From: an uncultured Flavobacteriales bacterium
GTDB lineage: Bacteria > Bacteroidota > Bacteroidia > Flavobacteriales > UBA1820
Length of the DNA stretch: 64,000 nt
NCBI GenBank assembly: GCA_902462305.1
Contig: CABQBC010000001.1
Location: 135,938 to 199,937, forward strand
Reading direction: 5' to 3'
Below, piece by piece: positions 10,162-59,062 of the stretch. The stretch's first letter is position 1, and each line of letters opens with the position of its first letter. The position numbers and the translations under genes were made by a program. The notes under the pieces were generated by a model. It was not told where the DNA came from and did no database searches. It worked only from the letters and a program-made list of their open reading frames with translations.

Positions 10162-11190
10162 ATGAAAACATCACTTAAATTGCTAGCATTCGCAGCAGTG
10201 CCTGCCTTATGCGGATGTTCGCACCAAACGCACCAGAAAAACTACGCCGAACTGACTTCTTCGGATTCTACCGACATGGTCTTCGCCGTCTCGGACAGCA
10301 TACATGCCGACAGCGTAACCATAAATGAAATACTCGAACCTATGGAATGGAACTTTGCCGAGGGCTGCGTAATCGTAAACAGCCCGAAAAACGAGGAGAT
10401 ATTCCATGTTTACGCCGCGCCGGAATTCCGCTACATGTACTCTTTCGGCAAAAAAGGCGAAGGGCCGGGGGAATTTTTCAGCCCCAACATATACCCTTCT
10501 CCCGATGGTAAAGGTTTTTACATAACCGATATAGTCGGAAAATGCTGCCGATATGCCATCGACCAGTCGCATGCATGGGCCGTTTCCGAAACGGCGACAC
10601 GCGGCAACGGCGCGGATATGTTCGTGTACGCCATGACCGACGATTCTACGGCTGTCAACCGGCCAGGCTCCGGGACACGGCTGGAGGTAGTACGCTTTTC
10701 GCAAGGACTCAACGTCACCGATACAATCGCAAGCCTTCAGGTAGAAGGCCCGGAAAAAACAGAAACCTACGGAGACCGTACATTCACAACCCGTCCGTCG
10801 AGGAATTTTCCGTCGGTGGTAAGCCGTGAGGGGCGCGTTGCTTTCGTATATCCCCAGGTTCGGCGCATAGACTATTTCGATATAACTCGGGACGGGAAAT
10901 TTTCACACGTGCGCTCCATCGGGAATCTGAGCTGCCGGCGGGAAATAGAAAACTCCGACATATTTTCACAGAAACGCCGCGATATAGAAGTACGTACTAC
11001 GGAAAAAAACATATACGTGCTGGACGATAATGCGATATATGTCTATGACTGGAACGGCAACTGCATGGCCGAACTTTTTCCCGACAAACGCATAACATCG
11101 TTCATTCCCGATCCTGTCAATTCGAAAATATACGGATACGACCGCCGCGAGGATTTCGAGAAAGTGTACGTTTTCGATTTCACGGAATGA
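10162..11190 (+). CDS. lipoprotein, 6-bladed beta-propeller-like family, paralog 4 (most divergent of the tandem set)
   Basis: Lipobox ALCGCS, with motifs ADSVTINEI, APEFRYMYSFGKKGEGPGEF and EDFEKVYVF. Confidence 0.6.
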   Translation: MKTSLKLLAFAAVPALCGCSHQTHQKNYAELTSSDSTDMVFAVSDSIHADSVTINEILEPMEWNFAEGCVIVNSPKNEEIFHVYAAPEFRYMYSFGKKGEGPGEFFSPNIYPSPDGKGFYITDIVGKCCRYAIDQSHAWAVSETATRGNGADMFVYAMTDDSTAVNRPGSGTRLEVVRFSQGLNVTDTIASLQVEGPEKTETYGDRTFTTRPSRNFPSVVSREGRVAFVYPQVRRIDYFDITRDGKFSHVRSIGNLSCRREIENSDIFSQKRRDIEVRTTEKNIYVLDDNAIYVYDWNGNCMAELFPDKRITSFIPDPVNSKIYGYDRREDFEKVYVFDFTE

Positions 11191-11208
11191 TCCCTGCATG
11201 GCAAACAT

Positions 11209-11239
11209 AAAAACGGCGTCCCTTCGGGACGCCGTTTTT
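11209..11239. terminator. bidirectional intrinsic terminator between convergent genes
   Basis: aaaaacggcgtccc-ttc-gggacgccgttttt forms a 14-bp stem with A/T tracts on both sides. It lies between the propeller paralog 4 stop and the tatA stop. Confidence 0.75.
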
Positions 11240-11286
11240 ATGTACCAAATGATGACTGCGCATTCTTACGGGAAATGCCGCCGTTA

Positions 11287-11502
11287 TTATTTTTCTTTGT
11301 CTCCGGCCGAATCGTTTTTGGCGTCTTTACCGTCATCCGCGTCACCGTACTCACCGCGTGTGGACTTCTTGAACTCGTTTATCCCCTTGCCCAGGTTCTT
11401 CATCAGAGTAGGTATCTTCGCGCCGCCGAAAAGCAACAACAGAACAAGCACTATAAGAATAAGCTGAGGAACGCCTATCACGCCAAGTATTATCGTTTCC
11501 AT
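11287..11502 (-). CDS. tatA: twin-arginine translocase subunit TatA/E
   Basis: From the internal Met: METIILGVIGVPQLILIVLVLLLLFGGAKIPTLMKNLGKGINEFKK, followed by an acidic tail. No tatC is adjacent. Confidence 0.85.
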   Translation of the reverse strand: METIILGVIGVPQLILIVLVLLLLFGGAKIPTLMKNLGKGINEFKKSTRGEYGDADDGKDAKNDSAGDKEK

Positions 11503-11768
11503 AATTACGGTATCATTATTATATGAAGGCAAATATATGTCTTTTTCCGTGTAAAACAACACCGCCCCACGAAGTTATTTACTCGCTTTTCCTGTTCATT
11601 GCGGAAAACACAGCATCAGTTTTTCACAATTCCGCTCGGTAAAAACCCCGTACATATACCGGCACGAAAACAAAAAAACAGCTTTTTACCTTTTTTTATG
11701 CACATTTTACCCTGTATTAAAAGCTATTACTTAAATTTGGGGAGCAAAAAACAACATCATCAACACCA

Positions 11769-13394
11769 ATGTCCCCAAAAATACTGCGCGGAGTAAGGAT
11801 AACCGCTGCCCTGATCTTTTTCCTGCCGCTTATTTTCTATTTCGTCGATTTCGCAGGGATAATGCCTCAAAGCCTTGCATTTGCGCTTAAATTGCAATTC
11901 GTCCCGGCTATATTGGCCGGAGCATGGCTTTACGTAGCCGCTGTGATGATACTCACCTTGCTGTTCGGACGCATCTACTGCTCGGCAATATGCCCGTTCG
12001 GAGTAATGATGGACTGCGTATCGCACATATCCGGACGCGGCAAAAAGAAAAACTTTAAAAACAAAGACAAACGTTACGCATATTCCCGCCCGCACAACGT
12101 ACTCAGATATTCGGTACTGGCCATTTTCACGGCGGCGTTTTTCATATCCGGACTGTTCCTGGCAGTAATGTTGCTGGACCCGTATTCCAATTTCGGACGT
12201 ATAGCCGCCAACATAGCCTCACCCGTATATGTCGCTGCGAACAATGCCCTGGCATACGTCACAGGACTGTTCGGTTCGCACGCATTGTACAAAGTGGGAT
12301 TTGCCTCGTTCGACATATACGCCTTTTCATTCTCGGCGGCGGTACTTACCGTAGTGGCATTGCTGGCCTTTTTCAAAGGCCGCCTGTACTGCAATTCCGT
12401 GTGCCCGGTAGGCACATTCCTCGGATTATTTTCCCGTTTCTCTCTGTTCAAAATACGTATAGACCAAGAAAAATGCACATCGTGCGGAATATGTACGATG
12501 AGTTGCAAATCGTCCTGCATAGAAAAAGGAGGCAAAAGCATCGACTATTCGCGTTGCGTGGTATGTTTCGATTGTATAGGCGGCTGCAAAGGACACGGCA
12601 TAACATTCAGCCCCGGAATAACAGGAGTGAAAGGGACAAAACATGTCACAACCGGAAAAAACACGCCTGAAGACGCTTCAAGACGTGAATTTCTGGCCAC
12701 TTCAGCGGCAATAGCACTATCGGCGCCCATACTTTCGGCAGCCGTACCGCAACCGGGAAAGGAAAAAGCCTGCGCCAATGCAGGAGAATGCATAAACGGC
12801 GACACGTGCGACTTCACCAACCAATGTTACACCAGTGGAAGCAAACTGCCGGTCACCCCTGCCGGTTCGACAGGCATCGAAGAATTCAACGCAGCATGTA
12901 CGGCCTGCAATCTATGTATAGTCAAATGCCCTTCACAGGTACTTAAGCCGGCGGTGACGGAATACGGACTGCGCGGCTTCATGCAACCGGTCATGAAATA
13001 CCGCGACGGACATTTTTGCAATTACGACTGTACCGTATGTTCGCAGGTATGCCCCACCGGAGCCATAAAGCCTCTGACAAAAGAAGAAAAACACACGGTA
13101 CAAATAGGCATAGCGCATTTCTTTCCCGGAAAGTGCGTGGCAGTGGTAAATTCATACGACTGCGGCGCCTGCGCCGAACACTGCCCGACGGCAGCCGTAC
13201 ACATGAAAGACAACCCGTCCGGAGGCCCGCGCATACCGGAAGTAACACCAGAACTTTGCGTAGGCTGCGGTGCTTGCGAACAGATATGCCCGGAAAAAGC
13301 CATTATCGTCTATGGCAACAGGGTACACCGTAAAGCCGAATTACCCGTAAAAGAAGATGCGCTGGAAATAGACATAGACGATTTCGGTTTTTAA
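11769..13394 (+). CDS. membrane-bound polyferredoxin (NapH/MauN-like N-terminal domain plus several 4Fe-4S clusters)
   Basis: 541 aa with N-terminal TM helices carrying CxxxCP motifs (GRIYCSAICPFG and GRLYCNSVCPVG). Further CxxCxxCxxxCP ferredoxin motifs follow (CTSCGICTMSC, CTACNLCIVKCP, CGACAEHCP and CVGCGACEQICP). Confidence 0.8.
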   Translation: MSPKILRGVRITAALIFFLPLIFYFVDFAGIMPQSLAFALKLQFVPAILAGAWLYVAAVMILTLLFGRIYCSAICPFGVMMDCVSHISGRGKKKNFKNKDKRYAYSRPHNVLRYSVLAIFTAAFFISGLFLAVMLLDPYSNFGRIAANIASPVYVAANNALAYVTGLFGSHALYKVGFASFDIYAFSFSAAVLTVVALLAFFKGRLYCNSVCPVGTFLGLFSRFSLFKIRIDQEKCTSCGICTMSCKSSCIEKGGKSIDYSRCVVCFDCIGGCKGHGITFSPGITGVKGTKHVTTGKNTPEDASRREFLATSAAIALSAPILSAAVPQPGKEKACANAGECINGDTCDFTNQCYTSGSKLPVTPAGSTGIEEFNAACTACNLCIVKCPSQVLKPAVTEYGLRGFMQPVMKYRDGHFCNYDCTVCSQVCPTGAIKPLTKEEKHTVQIGIAHFFPGKCVAVVNSYDCGACAEHCPTAAVHMKDNPSGGPRIPEVTPELCVGCGACEQICPEKAIIVYGNRVHRKAELPVKEDALEIDIDDFGF

Positions 13395-13471
13395 GCGCGC
13401 TTCTTTTCGGTATCGCCCCAGCGTCAACACCGCATCCGGCAAACACACTGCCACGGAATAAAGCTCACACA

Positions 13472-13509
13472 AAAAATCCCCTGTGTAAATTTTCACACAG
13501 GGGATTTTT
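13472..13509. terminator. bidirectional intrinsic terminator
   Basis: aaaaatcccctgtgt-aaattttc-acacaggggattttt forms a 15-bp stem. It sits between the convergent polyferredoxin and the 13533-14225 gene. Confidence 0.75.
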
Positions 13510-13532
13510 CACTGCAAGGCACTATACGGCTG

Positions 13533-14225
13533 TCACATCCTGGGTTTGACCCCGGCGGAATACCCTACCCTGGTTATGATGCTCACCACGCCTTCATAGG
13601 CGGCGGGACCGTATGCGGCAACATCGGCCCAGTCCTTGTAAACGGAAACACTTACCACCTGCCTCGGATCCAGATTCTGGATTTCCTCGGGATTAACCTG
13701 CAGGCCGTCTATCAGGTAATAATTGCAAACCATATGACGGGCTCCCGACGTAGAGGCAACCAAACGGCCGAAAGTAACCACCCCCTGGTTATACGATATC
13801 TTACCGAAACGCCCGTTGAAAAGGTCCTCTATCTTATAATCGTTCTTCCCTACCCAGTACGTTTTTCCGCTTTCGGTATAATATCCCATATCAGGTTGTT
13901 CGTAATGATACTTATCCTTTGGCATTTCCACGAAAATACTGAAGTTTACCACGGTGTTTTTTTCCGGATTTACGGGAATAGTGGTTGGAGGTATCCCGCT
14001 GAACGACACTGAGAGGTTTCTTTCCTTACGCCCAAGCTCAATACTGTAACGCCCTTCGGAATTAGTGACGGCTTCGGTTTTGGACCTCACGGCCTTCACT
14101 TTTACGCCCTCTATCGGTATCCCCGCCATATCCGTTATACATCCGGTTACGGTATATTGCTGTGCTATGGCATTTACGGAAGGAAATACCGCAGCGAGTA
14201 TAAAAAGTAGCGCTAATTTTTTCAT
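13533..14225 (-). CDS. secreted protein: carboxypeptidase-regulatory-like domain plus a SusC plug-start-like module, with no barrel (paralog A)
   Basis: Signal peptide MKKLALLFILAAVFPSVNAIAQQ, then YTVTGCITDMAGIPIEGVKVKAV...TNSEGRYSI (CarbopepD_reg-like). The C-terminus reads YYLIDGLQVNPEEIQNLDPRQVVSVSVYKD..AAYGPAAYEGVVSIITR. Confidence 0.6.
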   Translation of the reverse strand: MKKLALLFILAAVFPSVNAIAQQYTVTGCITDMAGIPIEGVKVKAVRSKTEAVTNSEGRYSIELGRKERNLSVSFSGIPPTTIPVNPEKNTVVNFSIFVEMPKDKYHYEQPDMGYYTESGKTYWVGKNDYKIEDLFNGRFGKISYNQGVVTFGRLVASTSGARHMVCNYYLIDGLQVNPEEIQNLDPRQVVSVSVYKDWADVAAYGPAAYEGVVSIITRVGYSAGVKPRM

Positions 14226-49345: not shown

Positions 49346-49534
49346 TTCTACAAATATTTATATTGATTATTGAAAATTCGCAATTAAAAAACGCGCCCCG
49401 ACAACACACTGGCAGGAAACATATATGATAAACGGACCGGGAAAAAAAGCAAAGCGGGAAATCCTGTTTTAGCATTTTTTTCAAGAGGTCGCAATCAGTC
49501 AAATTTGTCCTCCGTGTAAAGTCTTTTCGCGGTG

Positions 49535-54948: not shown

Positions 54949-55419
54949 ATGCAATACACCGTCAAAAAAGTTTTCCCGCAGGACATACCATTGCTATGCC
55001 GCATTTTCAAAGATTCGGTGCTGAACATAGCATCGAAAGATTATTCACGCGAACAGACGGATGCATGGGCTGGTACGGGTACCGTAAAACGGTGGGAAGA
55101 ACTCTTTGCCAGCGGGCTTTGCTTTGCGGCGGCATTCGACAACGACGGCATCATGTGCGGCTTTACCTCGGTAAATACCGCCGGTTATCTGCACTCGATG
55201 TTCGTGGGGAGCGGTTATCGTGGAAAAGGCGTAGCTTCGGAACTTCTGAAATGGGCTGAAAATTACGCTAAAGAGCATCGTGCCTATGAAATGTCGTGTG
55301 ATGTGAGCATCACCGCAAAGACGTTTTTTTCAAAAAACGGATACCGTACGGAAAAAGAACAGGGTGTACGTGTAAAAGACATATTCATGACAAATTATGC
55401 CATGAAGAAAAAATTATGA
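54949..55419 (+). CDS. GNAT family N-acetyltransferase
   Basis: 156 aa. MFVGSGYRGKGVASELLKWAE is a GNAT motif A. Confidence 0.75.
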   Translation: MQYTVKKVFPQDIPLLCRIFKDSVLNIASKDYSREQTDAWAGTGTVKRWEELFASGLCFAAAFDNDGIMCGFTSVNTAGYLHSMFVGSGYRGKGVASELLKWAENYAKEHRAYEMSCDVSITAKTFFSKNGYRTEKEQGVRVKDIFMTNYAMKKKL

Positions 55420-55460
55420 TCTTCCGCCGCAATTAACGGGAGGATGTGTTATATAACGTA

Positions 55461-55871
55461 TCAGATATCCTCGAACTCAATATTGGTAAAGCGGCTCGAT
55501 AGCGAGATGTCTTCCTGCGTGCCCTCACGATCCGAAGCTACGGCGTGCTCGGCATCGATATCGTCAGGAGTCTTTTTATAGTCCTTTATATGACGTTCCG
55601 ATATGACTTCCTGCCCCTTTTCTTTCAAAATAAAATCGGTAGCTTCTTCAAAAAACGATTTAAAAGATTCGAAATCCTCTTTGTAAAGGTAGATTTTATG
55701 TTTCTTGTATTCGTTTACGCCCGATTCCTGGCTGAATTTTTTACTTTCGGTGATAGTCAGATAGTAGTCTCCGGCCTTTGTAGTCCTTACATCGAAAAAG
55801 TATGTCCTCCGTCCCGCCCTGAGTGCCTTGGAAAATATCTCGGTATTATCCTGGTATTCGTTTTCTCCCAT
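55461..55871 (-). CDS. PUR-alpha-like nucleic-acid-binding protein (DUF3276-like)
   Basis: 136 aa. RAGRRTYFFDVRTTKAGDYYLTITESKK and HKIYLYKEDFESF match the PUR-repeat pattern seen in Bacteroidota DUF3276 proteins. Confidence 0.6.
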   Translation of the reverse strand: MGENEYQDNTEIFSKALRAGRRTYFFDVRTTKAGDYYLTITESKKFSQESGVNEYKKHKIYLYKEDFESFKSFFEEATDFILKEKGQEVISERHIKDYKKTPDDIDAEHAVASDREGTQEDISLSSRFTNIEFEDI

Positions 55872-55899
55872 CGTTGTTTAGAGTTTAAATAATTTACCA

Positions 55900-55907
55900 C
55901 AAATCTA
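55900..55907 (-). promoter_or_regulatory. -7 box TAGATTTG upstream of the PUR-like gene
   Basis: Plus-strand caaatcta, about 30 nt upstream of the ATG at 55871. Confidence 0.45.
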
Positions 55908-56001
55908 AAAAAATATTTATCATAAAAAGATACAGGCCATATAAAGTTTTAATGAAAAGAAAAAAAATGATTTTTTTGTTGCGGCAAACGGATATTAATG
56001 G

Positions 56002-56009
56002 TATTTTTG
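56002..56009 (+). promoter_or_regulatory. -7 box TATTTTTG upstream of tRNA-Lys
   Basis: Matches TAnnTTTG, about 35 nt before the tRNA 5' end. Confidence 0.4.
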
Positions 56010-56044
56010 TGCCCGCAAACAGGGATTAAAACACTGTGCGTTAC

Positions 56045-56117
56045 GTTTCGGTAGCTCAGTTGGTAGAGCAATTGACTCTTAATCAATGGGTCGTGGGTTC
56101 GAGCCCCACCCGGAACA
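56045..56117 (+). tRNA. tRNA-Lys (anticodon CTT)
   Basis: Folded by hand into a 73-nt cloverleaf. Acceptor gtttcgg/ccggaac (one G.U), D arm gctc-agttggta-gagc, anticodon arm attga-ctCTTaa-tcaat, T arm gtggg-ttcgagc-cccac and discriminator A. CCA is not encoded. Confidence 0.9.
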
Positions 56118-56121
56118 CAAG

Positions 56122-56157
56122 AAAAAGCCCAAAACATAATGTTTTGGGCTTTTTTTA
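56122..56157. terminator. intrinsic terminator after tRNA-Lys (usable from both directions)
   Basis: aaagcccaaaac-ataat-gttttgggcttt forms a 12-bp stem with T7 downstream. Confidence 0.8.
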
Positions 56158-56196
56158 TGACTTAAATTTTTAGACTTTTTGCATCAAAAATAAAAG

Positions 56197-56736
56197 TTAT
56201 TCAAACAGGATATTGTTTTGCGGCTTATTGCTGATGGTAGGCTTTACCTGTATCAATTTTACAGTTTGAGAAGTTATATGGTTGAACTGTGGATTTTTGT
56301 CTATGAAATAGACTTTCTTGCCGCGAAGGTTCTCGAAGTATTCCCAGATTTCCTCTTTGGACATGGACTCGAACAGTTCGTCGAGGTCTATGATATAATT
56401 GTTGTCAAGAAAGGAGGCGGGTTCGGTACGAATTTCCAGGGTGTCATCCCATTCTACCGGCCTTGTTTTAGATAGCTCATAGGTATTGTAATTCACATGG
56501 AAAAACATTAAATATATTTCCCTAGCATCAGAAAGATAGGTAAAATTTATAGGCCCCCAATTATATAAATGACTATTATTTGGTTGATCTACCCTTCTAA
56601 AACCCTCCGATACATTATTTTCACCTTTCGATGTTACGTAGAAATATACCGGTTCATGTTCTGTATCTTCCGACTGTGCATATCCTGCGGCAAACGGCAG
56701 CAGAAGCAATGCGATGAGTGTTATTAGTTTTTTCAT
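56197..56736 (-). CDS. small secreted protein, candidate immunity/accessory protein (paralog 2)
   Basis: 179 aa with signal peptide MKKLITLIALLLLPFAAGYAQ. AT-rich. Shares identical DNA blocks with the 56795-57346 gene. No family recognised. Confidence 0.6.
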   Translation of the reverse strand: MKKLITLIALLLLPFAAGYAQSEDTEHEPVYFYVTSKGENNVSEGFRRVDQPNNSHLYNWGPINFTYLSDAREIYLMFFHVNYNTYELSKTRPVEWDDTLEIRTEPASFLDNNYIIDLDELFESMSKEEIWEYFENLRGKKVYFIDKNPQFNHITSQTVKLIQVKPTISNKPQNNILFE

Positions 56737-56794
56737 GTGTAGCGGTAATAGAAAAACCGGGAGGAGGCTTCTCCTCCCGGGAAAATCATAATTA

Positions 56795-57346
56795 TTATTT
56801 CATGCCACCTTCTTTCACTATAAGGCCGCCAGGGCGATTATTCGAGGATAATTTTACTTGTATCAATTTCACCGTTTGTTGGTTTATCTGGCCGTATTCG
56901 GGATTTTTATCTATAAAATATATCTTTTTATTATATAATTCATCTGTATAATCCCAGATTTCCTCTTTGGACATGGACTCGAACAGTTCGTCGAGGTCTA
57001 TGATGTAATTGTTGTCCAGAAAGGAGGCGGGTTCGGTGCGGATTTCCATCGTGTCATCCCATCTCACAGGCCGTATTTTTGAAAGTTCATAGGTGTTATA
57101 ATCTATGTGCATAAATGAAGCTCTAACTTTTCTGGATTTTGAAATATATGAAAAATATATAGGTACACTTCTATGACATGGATCGTTATTGCTACCATTT
57201 CCTCTCCATACGCCTTCAGATAAGTCGTTATTGGATTTTGAATTTACGTAGAAATATACCGGTTCATGTTCTGTATCTTCCGACTGTGCATATACACCCA
57301 TTAAGGGTTGTAATAACAGTATAGTAAATATGATTAGCTTTTTCAT
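56795..57346 (-). CDS. small secreted protein, candidate immunity/accessory protein (paralog 1)
   Basis: 183 aa with signal peptide MKKLIIFTILLLQPLMGVYAQ. It starts 20 nt downstream of the lipoprotein gene stop. No family recognised. Confidence 0.6.
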   Translation of the reverse strand: MKKLIIFTILLLQPLMGVYAQSEDTEHEPVYFYVNSKSNNDLSEGVWRGNGSNNDPCHRSVPIYFSYISKSRKVRASFMHIDYNTYELSKIRPVRWDDTMEIRTEPASFLDNNYIIDLDELFESMSKEEIWDYTDELYNKKIYFIDKNPEYGQINQQTVKLIQVKLSSNNRPGGLIVKEGGMK

Positions 57347-57365
57347 TGTTTGTTTAATTTAATTC

Positions 57366-58829
57366 TTATTTTTTTGATTTTGGCTCTATGCCAACTTTGT
57401 TTAAATAATCATCTATTTTACTCCGTTCATCAGGAGGTAAATTTTCATATACTGGAGAACCTTGCGTTCCTCCATAAGGAACATATTTGTAAAAATCAGC
57501 ATCCTGTCCCGGATATACCTGACGCAATATGTCCCTGTAAAAATCCGTATTTATCATCTTATCATGCTGGTAATCGTTGACATCTATCAAAGTCCTATCA
57601 GGAGGATAAAGTCCCATTTCTGTACCGATAAGATGACCAAATTCATGAGTAATCACACCAAAAACAGCTTCTGGAGAGGCTGTTGCCGCGAAAACAGGAT
57701 CATAATATATCTTATAACTTGGAGGAGCATTTTTATAAAATTGTACTTCAGTCACCGCTTTACGACTAAGAGGCGAGTCCGATATTCTTATTTGTAAATC
57801 ATTCCTTCTTGCTACATTATAAATAAAAGCCCTATTCTCCGGAGATAATTTATTTATAAAATCCATAGTAGATTTATCGAATAATTCCACACCTGTCTTC
57901 ATAATTGCAGGCGTATCATTATCACCGCCTCCTCCGTCACCCGGCCCGCTCGGATCGGGGTCGGGGTCCACAGGTGGAACCGGGTCGGTATCGGTAGTAT
58001 CGCGTACATACGCGGTACAATCGGTTCCGTTGCAGTCCATGTCGCCGCAATACGGACACGGCCTAACCATACACCATTCCGGAAAATAAGAACAGAAGTG
58101 CACAGGGTCGTAATTGTACACAGGCAGCCAACCCTTTATTATCACTTCATCGAGTGTCGAAATATCCTGCCCGTCCCATACGGGTACTGTCGTCGAGCCT
58201 GGATTCGGCGGCTCGTCTCCATCGCCGCCCTGCGCCTGGGAAACCATTACCGCAGGGACTAACAGGCCGCGTTTTACCGGAGCACGCGATGTGTCTATCC
58301 GGCCGTCGGTGTAACCTACTCTTCCCAACAGTTTCTTGCTCATGTCAAAGAAAAGCAGATCCCCGGTAAAATCCATCATGTTAAGCGGAGAAATGTACAT
58401 GGCGTCGATACCCGCTTTTTTCAGATAAGCCGTGTCGCCTACGGCGGATGTCAACGTACTATACTGCCTGCCCAGGGAATCCTGGTAGAGAGTAAGCCAT
58501 ACGGAAGGGTGCATGTAACGATGGCGTTCACTTTCCGGGAACTCCGTCGCATCGTAGTTGAAGTAATAATCGCCGGGAGAGGTGCGTACACATACGAGTA
58601 CCGCTTTGCTGCTGTCGTCCCATTGGTACGAACCGGCCGTTTCCCAGTTCAAATCGAGGCCCGCGGACGGATGCGCCGCGGTAAAAGAGGTCTTCTGGCC
58701 CTTTACTATGTCATTTTCTTTCGTCATATGAGCGTCGTATCCATACTGGTAACTCGTCATTTTCGAGCAGGATACCACGCATCCCAATACAGCTATGGGC
58801 AAAAAGACTTTAAAAGTCTTTTTTCTCAT
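57366..58829 (-). CDS. lipoprotein with a Cys-rich module, a Pro/Asp/Gly linker and a C-terminal HExxH (HEFGH) zincin-like domain; candidate polymorphic toxin
   Basis: 487 aa with lipobox AVLGCVVSC. The Cys cluster is HFCSYFPEWCMVRPCPYCGDMDCNGTDC and the linker is DTDPVPPVDPDPDPSGPGDGGGGDND. The C-terminal roughly 175 aa contain VITHEFGHLIG. Confidence 0.65.
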   Translation of the reverse strand: MRKKTFKVFLPIAVLGCVVSCSKMTSYQYGYDAHMTKENDIVKGQKTSFTAAHPSAGLDLNWETAGSYQWDDSSKAVLVCVRTSPGDYYFNYDATEFPESERHRYMHPSVWLTLYQDSLGRQYSTLTSAVGDTAYLKKAGIDAMYISPLNMMDFTGDLLFFDMSKKLLGRVGYTDGRIDTSRAPVKRGLLVPAVMVSQAQGGDGDEPPNPGSTTVPVWDGQDISTLDEVIIKGWLPVYNYDPVHFCSYFPEWCMVRPCPYCGDMDCNGTDCTAYVRDTTDTDPVPPVDPDPDPSGPGDGGGGDNDTPAIMKTGVELFDKSTMDFINKLSPENRAFIYNVARRNDLQIRISDSPLSRKAVTEVQFYKNAPPSYKIYYDPVFAATASPEAVFGVITHEFGHLIGTEMGLYPPDRTLIDVNDYQHDKMINTDFYRDILRQVYPGQDADFYKYVPYGGTQGSPVYENLPPDERSKIDDYLNKVGIEPKSKK

Positions 58830-58877
58830 AATAATGTTGTATCAGTTTGTTAATACCATTGAGTGAGGCCTCAGGGT

Positions 58878-58885
58878 CAAATATA
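58878..58885 (-). promoter_or_regulatory. -7 box TATATTTG upstream of the lipoprotein gene
   Basis: Plus-strand caaatata, about 50 nt upstream of the ATG at 58829. A perfect 10-bp palindrome tgaggcctca (58864-58873) sits just downstream of it. Confidence 0.45.
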
Positions 58886-59062
58886 AACAAAAAATAACAT
58901 AACACAAGTCCGACGACAAAAATTACCATAAATTCAAAGAACAAACGAAAACCCTACGCAATTTTCAAACAAACGCCTGGAAAACATAGAGTTTTCTCAA
59001 ACAAATATTCACGCGGCATCATTGATACGGCTAATGCACTACACATCAGCGCAGTGTGCTTT

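Follow-up and report, generated by a model that had tools for sequence, protein, structure and literature searches.

At present, most explanations of competition between gut strains invoke type VI secretion, the pore-forming BSAP proteins or a few bacteriocins. At contact-dependent growth inhibition (CDI) and Rhs loci there is an abrupt compositional change at the junction, and displaced modules pile up downstream. SitA toxins act in the cytoplasm, and their SitI immunity proteins are cytoplasmic as well. Polymorphic toxin systems were described by comparative genomics by Zhang, Iyer, Aravind and colleagues in 2012 (PMC3482391). That work includes, among its Bacteroidetes examples, the Amoebophilus proteins APD1 and APD2, in which a conserved N-terminus bearing a lipobox is combined with polymorphic C-termini, and it also describes small zincin toxin domains distantly related to Wss1-like peptidases and signal peptides on only some immunity proteins (PMC3482391). 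For gut Bacteroidales, acquired interbacterial defense (AID) arrays of orphan immunity genes that probably protect against the toxins of others have been reported (bioRxiv 10.1101/471110; PMC11901371). Here we analyze a locus on a 64,000-nucleotide stretch of DNA (the window, whose coordinates are used below) from an uncultured Flavobacteriales bacterium (GenBank assembly GCA_902462305.1, contig CABQBC010000001.1, positions 135,938 to 199,937). It consists of a gene for a predicted lipoprotein of 487 aa (57366..58829, minus strand), an open reading frame (ORF) with homologs that encodes a putative polymorphic toxin precursor and is called the toxin gene below, followed by two small genes, immA and immB, for predicted immunity proteins. 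The C-terminal (CT) part of the lipoprotein is almost certainly exchanged between strains as a cassette, and we put the probability that the locus is a polymorphic toxin-immunity system, with a toxin-immunity function, at roughly three in four.

The base composition of the toxin gene changes abruptly inside the coding sequence. The initial annotation of this DNA had counted G+C by hand, and these counts were exact: 190 in 540 nt (35.2%) for 57361-57900 and 204 in 360 nt (56.7%) for 57901-58260. It had also described the N-terminal part as close to the background of the window and the two downstream genes as AT-rich, and our values agree with both statements: the N-terminal coding part (57901-58829) has 52.7% GC against a window mean of 49.8%, and immA (56795-57346) and immB (56197-56736) have 36.1% and 38.3%, respectively. 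GC profiles in 200-nt windows gave 28-42% over ~55300-57900 and 51-57% over 57900-58700. When adjacent 400-nt windows were compared over the whole 64 kb, the change from 0.352 to 0.582 at ~57925 was the biggest step of all, so that a profile without a significant step at this place, which would have spoken against the initial annotation, was not what we obtained. It is also the sole large GC step within a gene in the window. The next-biggest steps, at ~16.4-16.9 kb and 38.6-39.2 kb, look intergenic because there are no long ORFs in either place, and they were dropped as comparable events. When the 34 ORFs with 300 aa or more were compared, the intragenic GC step of the toxin gene was 0.228, against 0.133 for the runner-up and a median of 0.065, and its step in GC at third codon positions (GC3) was 0.375, against 0.19 for the runner-up. 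GC at codon positions 1, 2 and 3 was 54, 46 and 60% for codons 1-301 and 48, 35 and 24% for codons 302-487, GC3 falling from 59.5% to 23.7%. The shift is therefore mainly synonymous and not caused by amino-acid composition. As the initial annotation had proposed, the compositional break lies at a domain boundary: the step falls on a Pro/Asp/Gly linker (...DPDPDPSGPGDGGGGDND, residues ~285-305).

A word-indexed protein search returned 11 homologs of the 487-aa protein, 10 of them full length and one (P0009) a 293-aa fragment ending at the linker, and 16 conspecific contigs carrying homologs, from metagenomes or metagenome-assembled genomes (MAGs), were compared. Synteny was found in all 16 contigs and comprises galK, galT, the toxin gene, one to many small genes and a DUF3276 gene. 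In the alignment of the homologs (A1) nearly all of residues 35-290 are invariant, and conservation ends at the linker. The single near-invariant N-terminal domain is followed by five or more CT types, with 21-45% identity from one main group to another; past the linker these types are distinct, yet the HExxH motif, a QH pair and a Met are kept. Nucleotide identity was 98-100% from galT to codon ~300 and then 30-45% (unalignable) from ~57926, with the exception of one contig (L092) that has the same CT type as the window. BLAST alignments with 99.4-99.6% identity extended from 64000 to 57923 (L001, L002, L003 and L087) or to 57934 (L004 and L100). These BLAST ends, together with the junction sequences, place the 5′ recombination junction at 57923..57934 on the minus strand, where the last shared DNA is ...CCGAGCGGGCCGGGTGACGG (SGPGDG). 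After this junction each CT opens with a loosely conserved x-T/A-P-x-F. Together these results leave hardly any room for doubt that cassettes are exchanged at the linker.

The compositional contrast was present in all alleles, the N-terminal part having 53-55% GC (GC3 59-61%) and the CT 35-40% GC (GC3 24-39%). Since the CT is AT-rich in every allele, the step belongs permanently to the pool of cassettes and dates no recent arrival. The spread in GC3 among CT types, from 24% for the type of the window to 39%, might, speculatively, reflect different residence times. The AT-rich cassettes fit a pool that comes from, or circulates among, AT-richer lineages and turns over too fast to ameliorate, and they fit a general AT bias of accessory genes equally well.

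The gene directly behind the toxin gene changes together with the CT. In the window this is immA (56795..57346, minus strand), which starts 19 nt after the toxin stop codon and encodes a 183-aa secreted protein, the predicted cognate immunity protein. It is followed by immB (56197..56736, minus strand), for a 179-aa paralog, predicted to be an orphan immunity gene. The two proteins are 63% identical, with conserved signal peptides and C-terminal halves and variable residues ~30-95, and the same pattern characterizes the whole small-gene family (alignment A4), whose signal peptide is near-invariant. Among the loci, the toxin gene and the first small gene are either separated by a 19-nt gap or overlap. 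On the basis of the variable regions the small genes were assigned to types A to F and one further type. The first downstream gene matched the CT type in 14 of 15 contigs. Thus, the CT of the window type was followed by type A (the window and L092, 2/2 contigs), the P0004 type by type C (L001, L002 and L003, 3/3), the P0006 type by type D (L004 and L100, 2/3, L005 being the exception), the P0003/8/10 type by type E (L087, L090, L095 and L096, 4/4) and the P0007 type by the further type (L089 and L106, 2/2), and an intermediate CT was followed by an E-like type (L103).

The later members of the arrays do not follow this rule. The order of small genes was C-A-B in L001, C-B-F-A in L003, E-C-A-F in L087, D-F-[gap]-E-A-E-B in L004, E-B in L090 and A-D in L092. 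Type A occurred as an orphan behind other CT types in five contigs (L001, L003, L004, L087 and L100) and type B at later array positions in five (L001, L003, L004, L090 and L100), and types B and F were never seen in first position among the compared contigs. Orphan immunity genes number from 1 to at least 5 per locus. The longest array, that of L004, contains a scaffold gap of ~3 kb of N within 10700-13830, so its copy number, at least six complete paralogs plus one cut by the gap, is a lower bound. Two contigs display what a displacement leaves behind. L001 has the order N+CT(P0004)+C+A+B and L100 the order N+CT(P0006)+D+A+B, where N is the N-terminal domain, and both become colinear with the window again (98-98.5%) from inside immA, at 57272 and 57293, respectively. 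These strains thus carry another CT with its own first gene and have kept type A as an orphan.

Breakpoints were also found within the CT and within immunity genes. P0018 is a mosaic of a type E variable region and a type A tail. In the P0004 and P0003 alleles (L001 8001-9986 and L087 8001-9976) the first ~45 CT codons and the part encoding the catalytic helix are 100% identical in DNA, and identity is 60-87% in two CT patches and 47-73% in the variable region of the immunity gene. The divergent CT patches may be the toxin-immunity interface or reflect additional internal breakpoints. Crossovers appear to use the linker and N-terminal coding DNA as well as conserved segments of the paralogs.

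The initial annotation had suggested that the CT domain and the genes downstream arrived together by recombination behind a resident N-terminal domain. The breakpoint, the CT types of the strains and the co-variation support the recombination; as for the joint arrival, immA does travel with the CT, but immB is found as an orphan behind other CT types. The collapse of identity that it expected at the linker among relatives is located at ~57926. It had further suggested looking for orphan fragments of both kinds, of which immunity orphans are abundant and CT orphans did not turn up in the window or the related loci, and had named as contrary evidence a CT that is equally AT-rich in all relatives and has the same N-terminal partner everywhere: the first part of this holds, but the second and decisive part does not.

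The exchanged part itself (aa 307-487; 57369..57911, minus strand; 35% GC, GC3 24%) resembles small zinc-dependent peptidases, as judged from its profile relatives and a structural model. A profile made from seven CT sequences and searched against 1.84 billion representative proteins matched 68 proteins at E ≤ 1e-3, of which 30 were regarded as full length (at least 350 aa and a Met start). In the 17 relatives that were inspected the CT domain reaches to within a few residues of the C-terminus, except for P0041, where the match ends ~14 residues before it. In an alignment of 35 diverse CTs (A3) the sole invariant residues are His90, Glu91, His94 and His117, with Met120 conserved to at least 90%. 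Their counterparts in the window protein are His395, Glu396 and His399 of a HEFGH motif (57633..57647, minus strand), His422 (57564..57566, minus strand), the probable third zinc ligand, and Met425 three residues further on. An AlphaFold2 (AF2) model of the CT, based on the A3 alignment, had a predicted local distance difference test (pLDDT) score of 90 and a predicted template modeling (pTM) score of 0.87. In this model two helices and a three-stranded sheet precede a long helix carrying HExxH, which is followed by a helix with His422 and Met425 and by further helices.

The top matches of the CT in the Protein Data Bank (PDB) are zincins throughout. Profile matches were selecase MJ1213 (E = 5e-4), Spartan and projannalysin, and Foldseek matches were selecase (probability 0.94-0.99, TM 0.3-0.6), BlaR1, Spartan, jannalysin and Ste24. 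Viral models that matched were mostly SprT-like. Below threshold, the Pfam models with likeness to the 35 CTs included SprT-like (9/35), PhageMetallopep (9/35), Peptidase_M91 (NleD/HopH1; 6/35) and DUF5700, and there was no toxin-metallopeptidase model among the 25 families shown of 45. With its HExxH helix, third ligand and alpha/beta fold, all as modeled, the CT has the features by which a zincin is recognized. We conclude that it is a small zincin of SprT/minigluzincin grade that is a member of no curated family.

By inspection, the part of the lipoprotein that precedes the junction starts with a signal peptide containing a lipobox, MRKKTFKVFLPIAVLGCVVSC (58767..58829, minus strand), in which the lipidated residue would be Cys17 or Cys21; the region reads AVLGCVVSC, so that AVLGC and VVSC are both possible. 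A comparable signal ending in Cys was present in 22 of the 30 full-length family members. Next comes the conserved domain (aa ~22-240; 58110..58766, minus strand), which is near-invariant in the homologs. Its ~220 residues are encoded by DNA with 53% GC and a GC3 of 59.5%, the genome's own composition, and this DNA is 99-100% identical between strains. A Cys-rich stretch, CSYFPEWCMVRPCPYCGDMDCNGTDC (aa 246-271; 58017..58094, minus strand), follows and contains CxxC knuckles. All six of its Cys are invariant in A1, and such a stretch lies at the same place in 13 of the 30 relatives. Its knuckles are candidates for a disulfide knot, a metal site or a translocation element. CxxC/CPxCG zinc-ribbon-like clusters were observed before the linker of an exported lipoprotein in the window and in P0048, P0050, P0052, P0054, P0061 and P0074. 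The low-complexity Thr/Asp/Pro/Gly linker (aa 272-306; 57912..58016, minus strand) includes a DP repeat of variable length, and a linker rich in G, D, P, N and S was found in 26 of the 30. The Asp-Pro repeat (57940-57975, minus strand) reads DPDPDP or DPDPDPDP depending on the allele, L092, L089 and L090 being among those compared, and this copy-number variation suggests slippage in the GC-rich low-complexity DNA beside the junction. Neither the 487-aa protein nor the products of immA and immB matched a Pfam or NCBIfam family even at E = 1.

Related modules occur in other contexts as well. The N-terminal domain of P0050 is distantly homologous to that of the window protein (hidden Markov model (HMM) E = 4e-61), and its gene lies on a conjugative element, next to TraM, DUF4138 (TraN-like) and TraG coupling-protein genes. 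This element has two tandem pairs of CT and immunity gene: P0050 with a 183-aa member of the immunity family, and P0041, which has a different N-terminal domain, with another immunity gene. The cargo has 31-40% GC against 55% for the conjugation genes. A second lineage possesses an unrelated N-terminal domain (P0042 type, N2), behind which the same kind of variation was observed: L109 is N2+CTx+immx and L104 is N2+CTy+immy+immx+immz, and of the CT types CTx, which is HEFGH-like, comes nearest to the CT of the window. In these other contexts the modules have 38-41% GC and their flanks 45-48%. On contig L107 (2203-6483) an immunity paralog directly follows type I restriction genes, one hsdS-like and one hsdR-like (1065 aa), and the 6 kb upstream contain no toxin gene. 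This orphan thus has a defense-like setting. A metagenome scan with the immunity alignment gave 9 loci. HMM searches, one each for CT, immunity family and N-terminal domain, detected no further copies in the window or in the loci of the strains.

Taken as a toxin-immunity system, the locus could work as follows. The 487-aa protein would be exported by the Sec pathway and lipidated at the lipobox. Its N-terminal ~300 residues, i.e. domain, Cys knuckles and linker, which are common to the strains, would anchor or deliver the CT, and its last ~180 residues would be an exchangeable HExxH...H zinc metallopeptidase that damages competing cells at a target outside the cytoplasm, in the periplasm or envelope. 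The action of the CT is placed outside the cytoplasm because its partner is predicted to be exported and an immunity protein works in the compartment of the toxin. By inspection, both small proteins have signal peptides that look cleavable (...YA/QS, the slash marking the site; ...GVYA/QS in the immA product) and that lack a lipobox. ImmA would bind and neutralize the matching CT in the periplasm of the producer, and immB would be an orphan immunity gene against a CT type of other strains. New cassettes of CT plus immunity gene would enter by homologous recombination, with one crossover in the conserved linker or N-terminal coding DNA and the other in conserved parts of the immunity paralogs. 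An incoming cassette would displace the old CT and leave the old immunity gene, so arrays would grow, and because the cassettes are AT-rich and the N-terminal domain has the composition of the host, the GC step would come to lie within the gene. Toxicity, the protease activity and its target, neutralization and the delivery route are points that we infer. Candidates for delivery are surface exposure, vesicles, lipoprotein exchange and cleavage at the linker.

Several observations weigh against this view of the locus. The locus proteins have no detectable homology to a characterized toxin or immunity protein. None of the matches of the CT in the PDB was significant as a family assignment (Foldseek E > 0.01), and neither the window protein nor any of the 35 CTs reached the Pfam gathering threshold. 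AF2 prediction of the N-terminal 300 residues was unreliable (pLDDT < 50), the full-length model being unusable there because the alignment is near-invariant in this part. Secretion or delivery machinery is not encoded within 8 kb of the locus. In Bacteroidota, acidic residues just after the lipidated Cys are the signal for surface export. After Cys21 the sequence reads SKMTSYQYGYD, in which none of the first nine residues is acidic, and this makes surface exposure uncertain; some relatives do have acidic stretches at the Cys (CSVPEEEE, CKNDFEED). Orphan CTs, often present in classical systems, were not detected by HMM in the window or related loci. Finally, on contig L005 (9479-9795) the gene directly behind a P0006-type CT is of type A, the sole mismatch between CT and first gene. 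The junction lies there in signal-peptide sequence common to the paralogs, the contig, from metaSPAdes, ends ~300 nt further on, and we suspect an assembly join; alternatively, it could be a real strain without the cognate gene.

Other explanations have to be considered. One is that the lipoprotein is a surface or vesicle protease acting on host, dietary or phage substrates, that its CT has been diversified by immune or phage pressure and that the paralogs are dedicated inhibitors or chaperones that hold it inactive in the periplasm of the producer and give no immunity against neighbors. The zincin motif and fold class are indeed silent on the target, the contigs come from gut metagenomes, and the weak sub-threshold likeness of 6 of the 35 members to Peptidase_M91 is to a family that Pfam calls an effector protein. 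However, strains keep up to five or more non-matching paralogs in shuffled order, which make sense as protection from the variants of others and not as chaperones of the own protein, and on L107 an orphan paralog stands beside type I restriction genes, and the 6 kb upstream lack a toxin gene. In addition, co-variation of the pair and carriage on conjugative elements are typical of toxin-immunity modules. We therefore consider this explanation unlikely.

A second possibility, somewhat less probable still, accepts a toxin-immunity pair and assigns it mainly to kin discrimination, with delivery by outer-membrane lipoprotein exchange or vesicle fusion and not as a released or surface weapon. It has a precedent in the myxobacterial SitA toxins, which are reported to be polymorphic lipoproteins delivered by outer membrane exchange (PMC5562445). 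Also in line with it are the lipobox of the toxin, without an acidic surface-export motif after the Cys, and polymorphism within one species at a fixed chromosomal site. On the other hand, the paralogs at our locus carry signal peptides, whereas SitI is cytoplasmic, and TraA/TraB outer membrane exchange machinery is not known from Bacteroidota. The last explanation, that the GC step stems from amino-acid content, the codon usage of weak expression or an assembly chimera, with no exchange at all, could appeal to a CT rich in Lys, Asn, Ile, Tyr and Phe and to the fall of GC at second positions from 46% to 35%, but it is ruled out for practical purposes by the drop in GC3 and by the strain breakpoints, the same junction being present in more than 15 independent assemblies with different CTs behind an identical N-terminus.

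The locus is embedded in housekeeping DNA, with galT, galK, ribB, lptF/G and ftsK on one flank and DUF3276, GNAT acetyltransferase, zinc-ribbon and radical-SAM genes on the other. Cargo of type VI or type IX secretion was considered for the lipoprotein and rejected, as there was no supporting domain or neighbor gene. Upstream of the toxin gene lies AT-rich intergenic DNA that is the presumed promoter region (58830..59062, minus strand). The span 58730-59060, into which the toxin gene reaches with its initial ~100 nt, has 38% GC, and no promoter was identified there with a sigma-70 scan, which does not model Bacteroidota promoters. Between immA and immB there is a terminator-like GC-rich hairpin of 10 pairs, 8 of them G-C, with a TTTTT run (56757..56780, minus strand). 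Array spacers with a GC-rich hairpin and a T run were also seen in L004 (10005-10070, 14363-14430 and 15569-15635), and the array spacers of other strains translate to similar peptides (...REEKSLLPVFLLPLH). This conserved spacer hairpin may be a terminator between array members or a recombination landmark. A hairpin scan found another terminator-like hairpin that ends the array (56122..56154, minus strand).

The far edge of the variable region is formed by a tRNA-Lys(CUU) gene (56045..56118, plus strand), as indicated by a tRNA call and by homology to L003, in which homology with the window restarts exactly at the tRNA end, 56118, past an rtcB insertion. The space between the immunity array and this tRNA gene is an insertion hot spot across strains: segments containing rtcB were found there in L003 (11771-14558) and L004 (from ~16200), and L087 (from ~11880) has an island there that encodes an S24 peptidase and an AAA_15 ATPase. 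The DUF3276 gene and the tRNA gene are 98-99% conserved in all strains and therefore lie outside the exchanged segment, and for this reason the view of the low-GC tract down to 55300 as one island was abandoned. Apart from the tRNA, the only Rfam match in the window was a SAM-II riboswitch in its long-loop form (49459-49518, minus strand), which scored 67.4 bits where the gathering score is 44.

Every named database entry is annotated as 'hypothetical protein [Flavobacteriales bacterium]' and comes from a MAG, and one related contig is labeled human gut metagenome. No relative of the N-terminal domain was found in the GTDB representative genomes. The nearest GalT among GTDB species representatives is 73% identical and belongs to a Flavobacteriales MAG (L007) without the toxin locus. 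Coverage of the lineage by reference genomes is poor.

The locus is a compact two-gene candidate weapon that is independent of secretion systems; it displays clear natural variation in an uncultured gut lineage, and relatives of it lie on conjugative elements. If the proposed function is correct, three families, those of the CT zincin, the immunity proteins and the N-terminal carrier, would gain a testable function. Orphan gene order might be used to mark strains and to trace earlier replacements of the toxin. For genome scanning, the case confirms an intragenic GC3 step at a low-complexity linker as a reliable flag of cassette exchange. Full-text literature searches turned up no paper on the family, which is absence of evidence only, and the words metalloprotease, metallopeptidase and polymorphic are absent from the text of a 2025 review of Bacteroidales antagonism. 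The phenomenon of exchange is textbook knowledge; the families, and a secretion-system-independent lipoprotein carrier in gut Bacteroidota, are undescribed. At somewhat less than even odds, we suggest that the locus is the first example of an undescribed Bacteroidota family of antibacterial weapons, with Sec-exported lipoprotein carriers that have lineage-specific N-termini and extracytoplasmic CxxC knuckles, a new small zincin toxin and a new periplasmic immunity family, functioning without type VI or IX secretion (e.g. by vesicles or lipoprotein exchange) and with orphan arrays that record the succession of toxins in one gut species.

The comparison with the described systems can now be drawn. 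As in the polymorphic toxin systems at large, a conserved N-terminal trafficking part is joined to a recombining hypervariable CT, the predicted immunity gene lies directly downstream and the putative toxin domain is a small zincin. Unlike them, the locus has no Pfam toxin or immunity match and no RHS, filamentous-haemagglutinin or PAAR modules, its immunity proteins bear signal peptides and standalone CT cassettes were not found in the window or the related loci. As with the CdiA-CT/CdiI and Rhs-CT/RhsI pairs, identity breaks off abruptly at a fixed junction, and CT plus immunity gene are replaced as a unit. In contrast to these loci, there is no two-partner secretion partner and there are no haemagglutinin repeats, no VENN motif and no Rhs core; the carrier is a lipoprotein part of 300 residues, and the orphans are immunity genes only, without CT fragments. 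Where a CDI locus would have a CdiB partner, haemagglutinin repeats and VENN, the locus has no Pfam domains, housekeeping neighbors and a Pro/Asp/Gly junction.

In the SitA/SitI pairs of Myxococcus (PMC5562445), likewise, a polymorphic toxin bears a lipoprotein signal and has its immunity gene next to it, and strains of one species are told apart by them, but they belong to another phylum, their domains are unrelated to ours and delivery is by outer membrane exchange; the immunity proteins of our locus are, moreover, predicted to be exported. AID arrays are similar in being orphan immunity arrays in gut Bacteroidota. They answer type VI effectors, however, whereas the array described here stands behind its own putative toxin, a lipoprotein predicted to be exported by Sec, and all its members are of one paralogous family. 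The minigluzincins (selecase MJ1213, projannalysin) and SprT/Spartan resemble the CT in being small alpha/beta zincins with HExxH on a long helix and a ligand on the next; the matches to them are below family thresholds, the CT possesses in addition two helices at its N-terminal end and a helical extension at its C-terminal end, and it is part of a predicted exported protein while they are cytoplasmic or nuclear. The design of the locus is thus a known one, and its three component families are without annotation and lie outside the CDI, Rhs, SitA and AID families.

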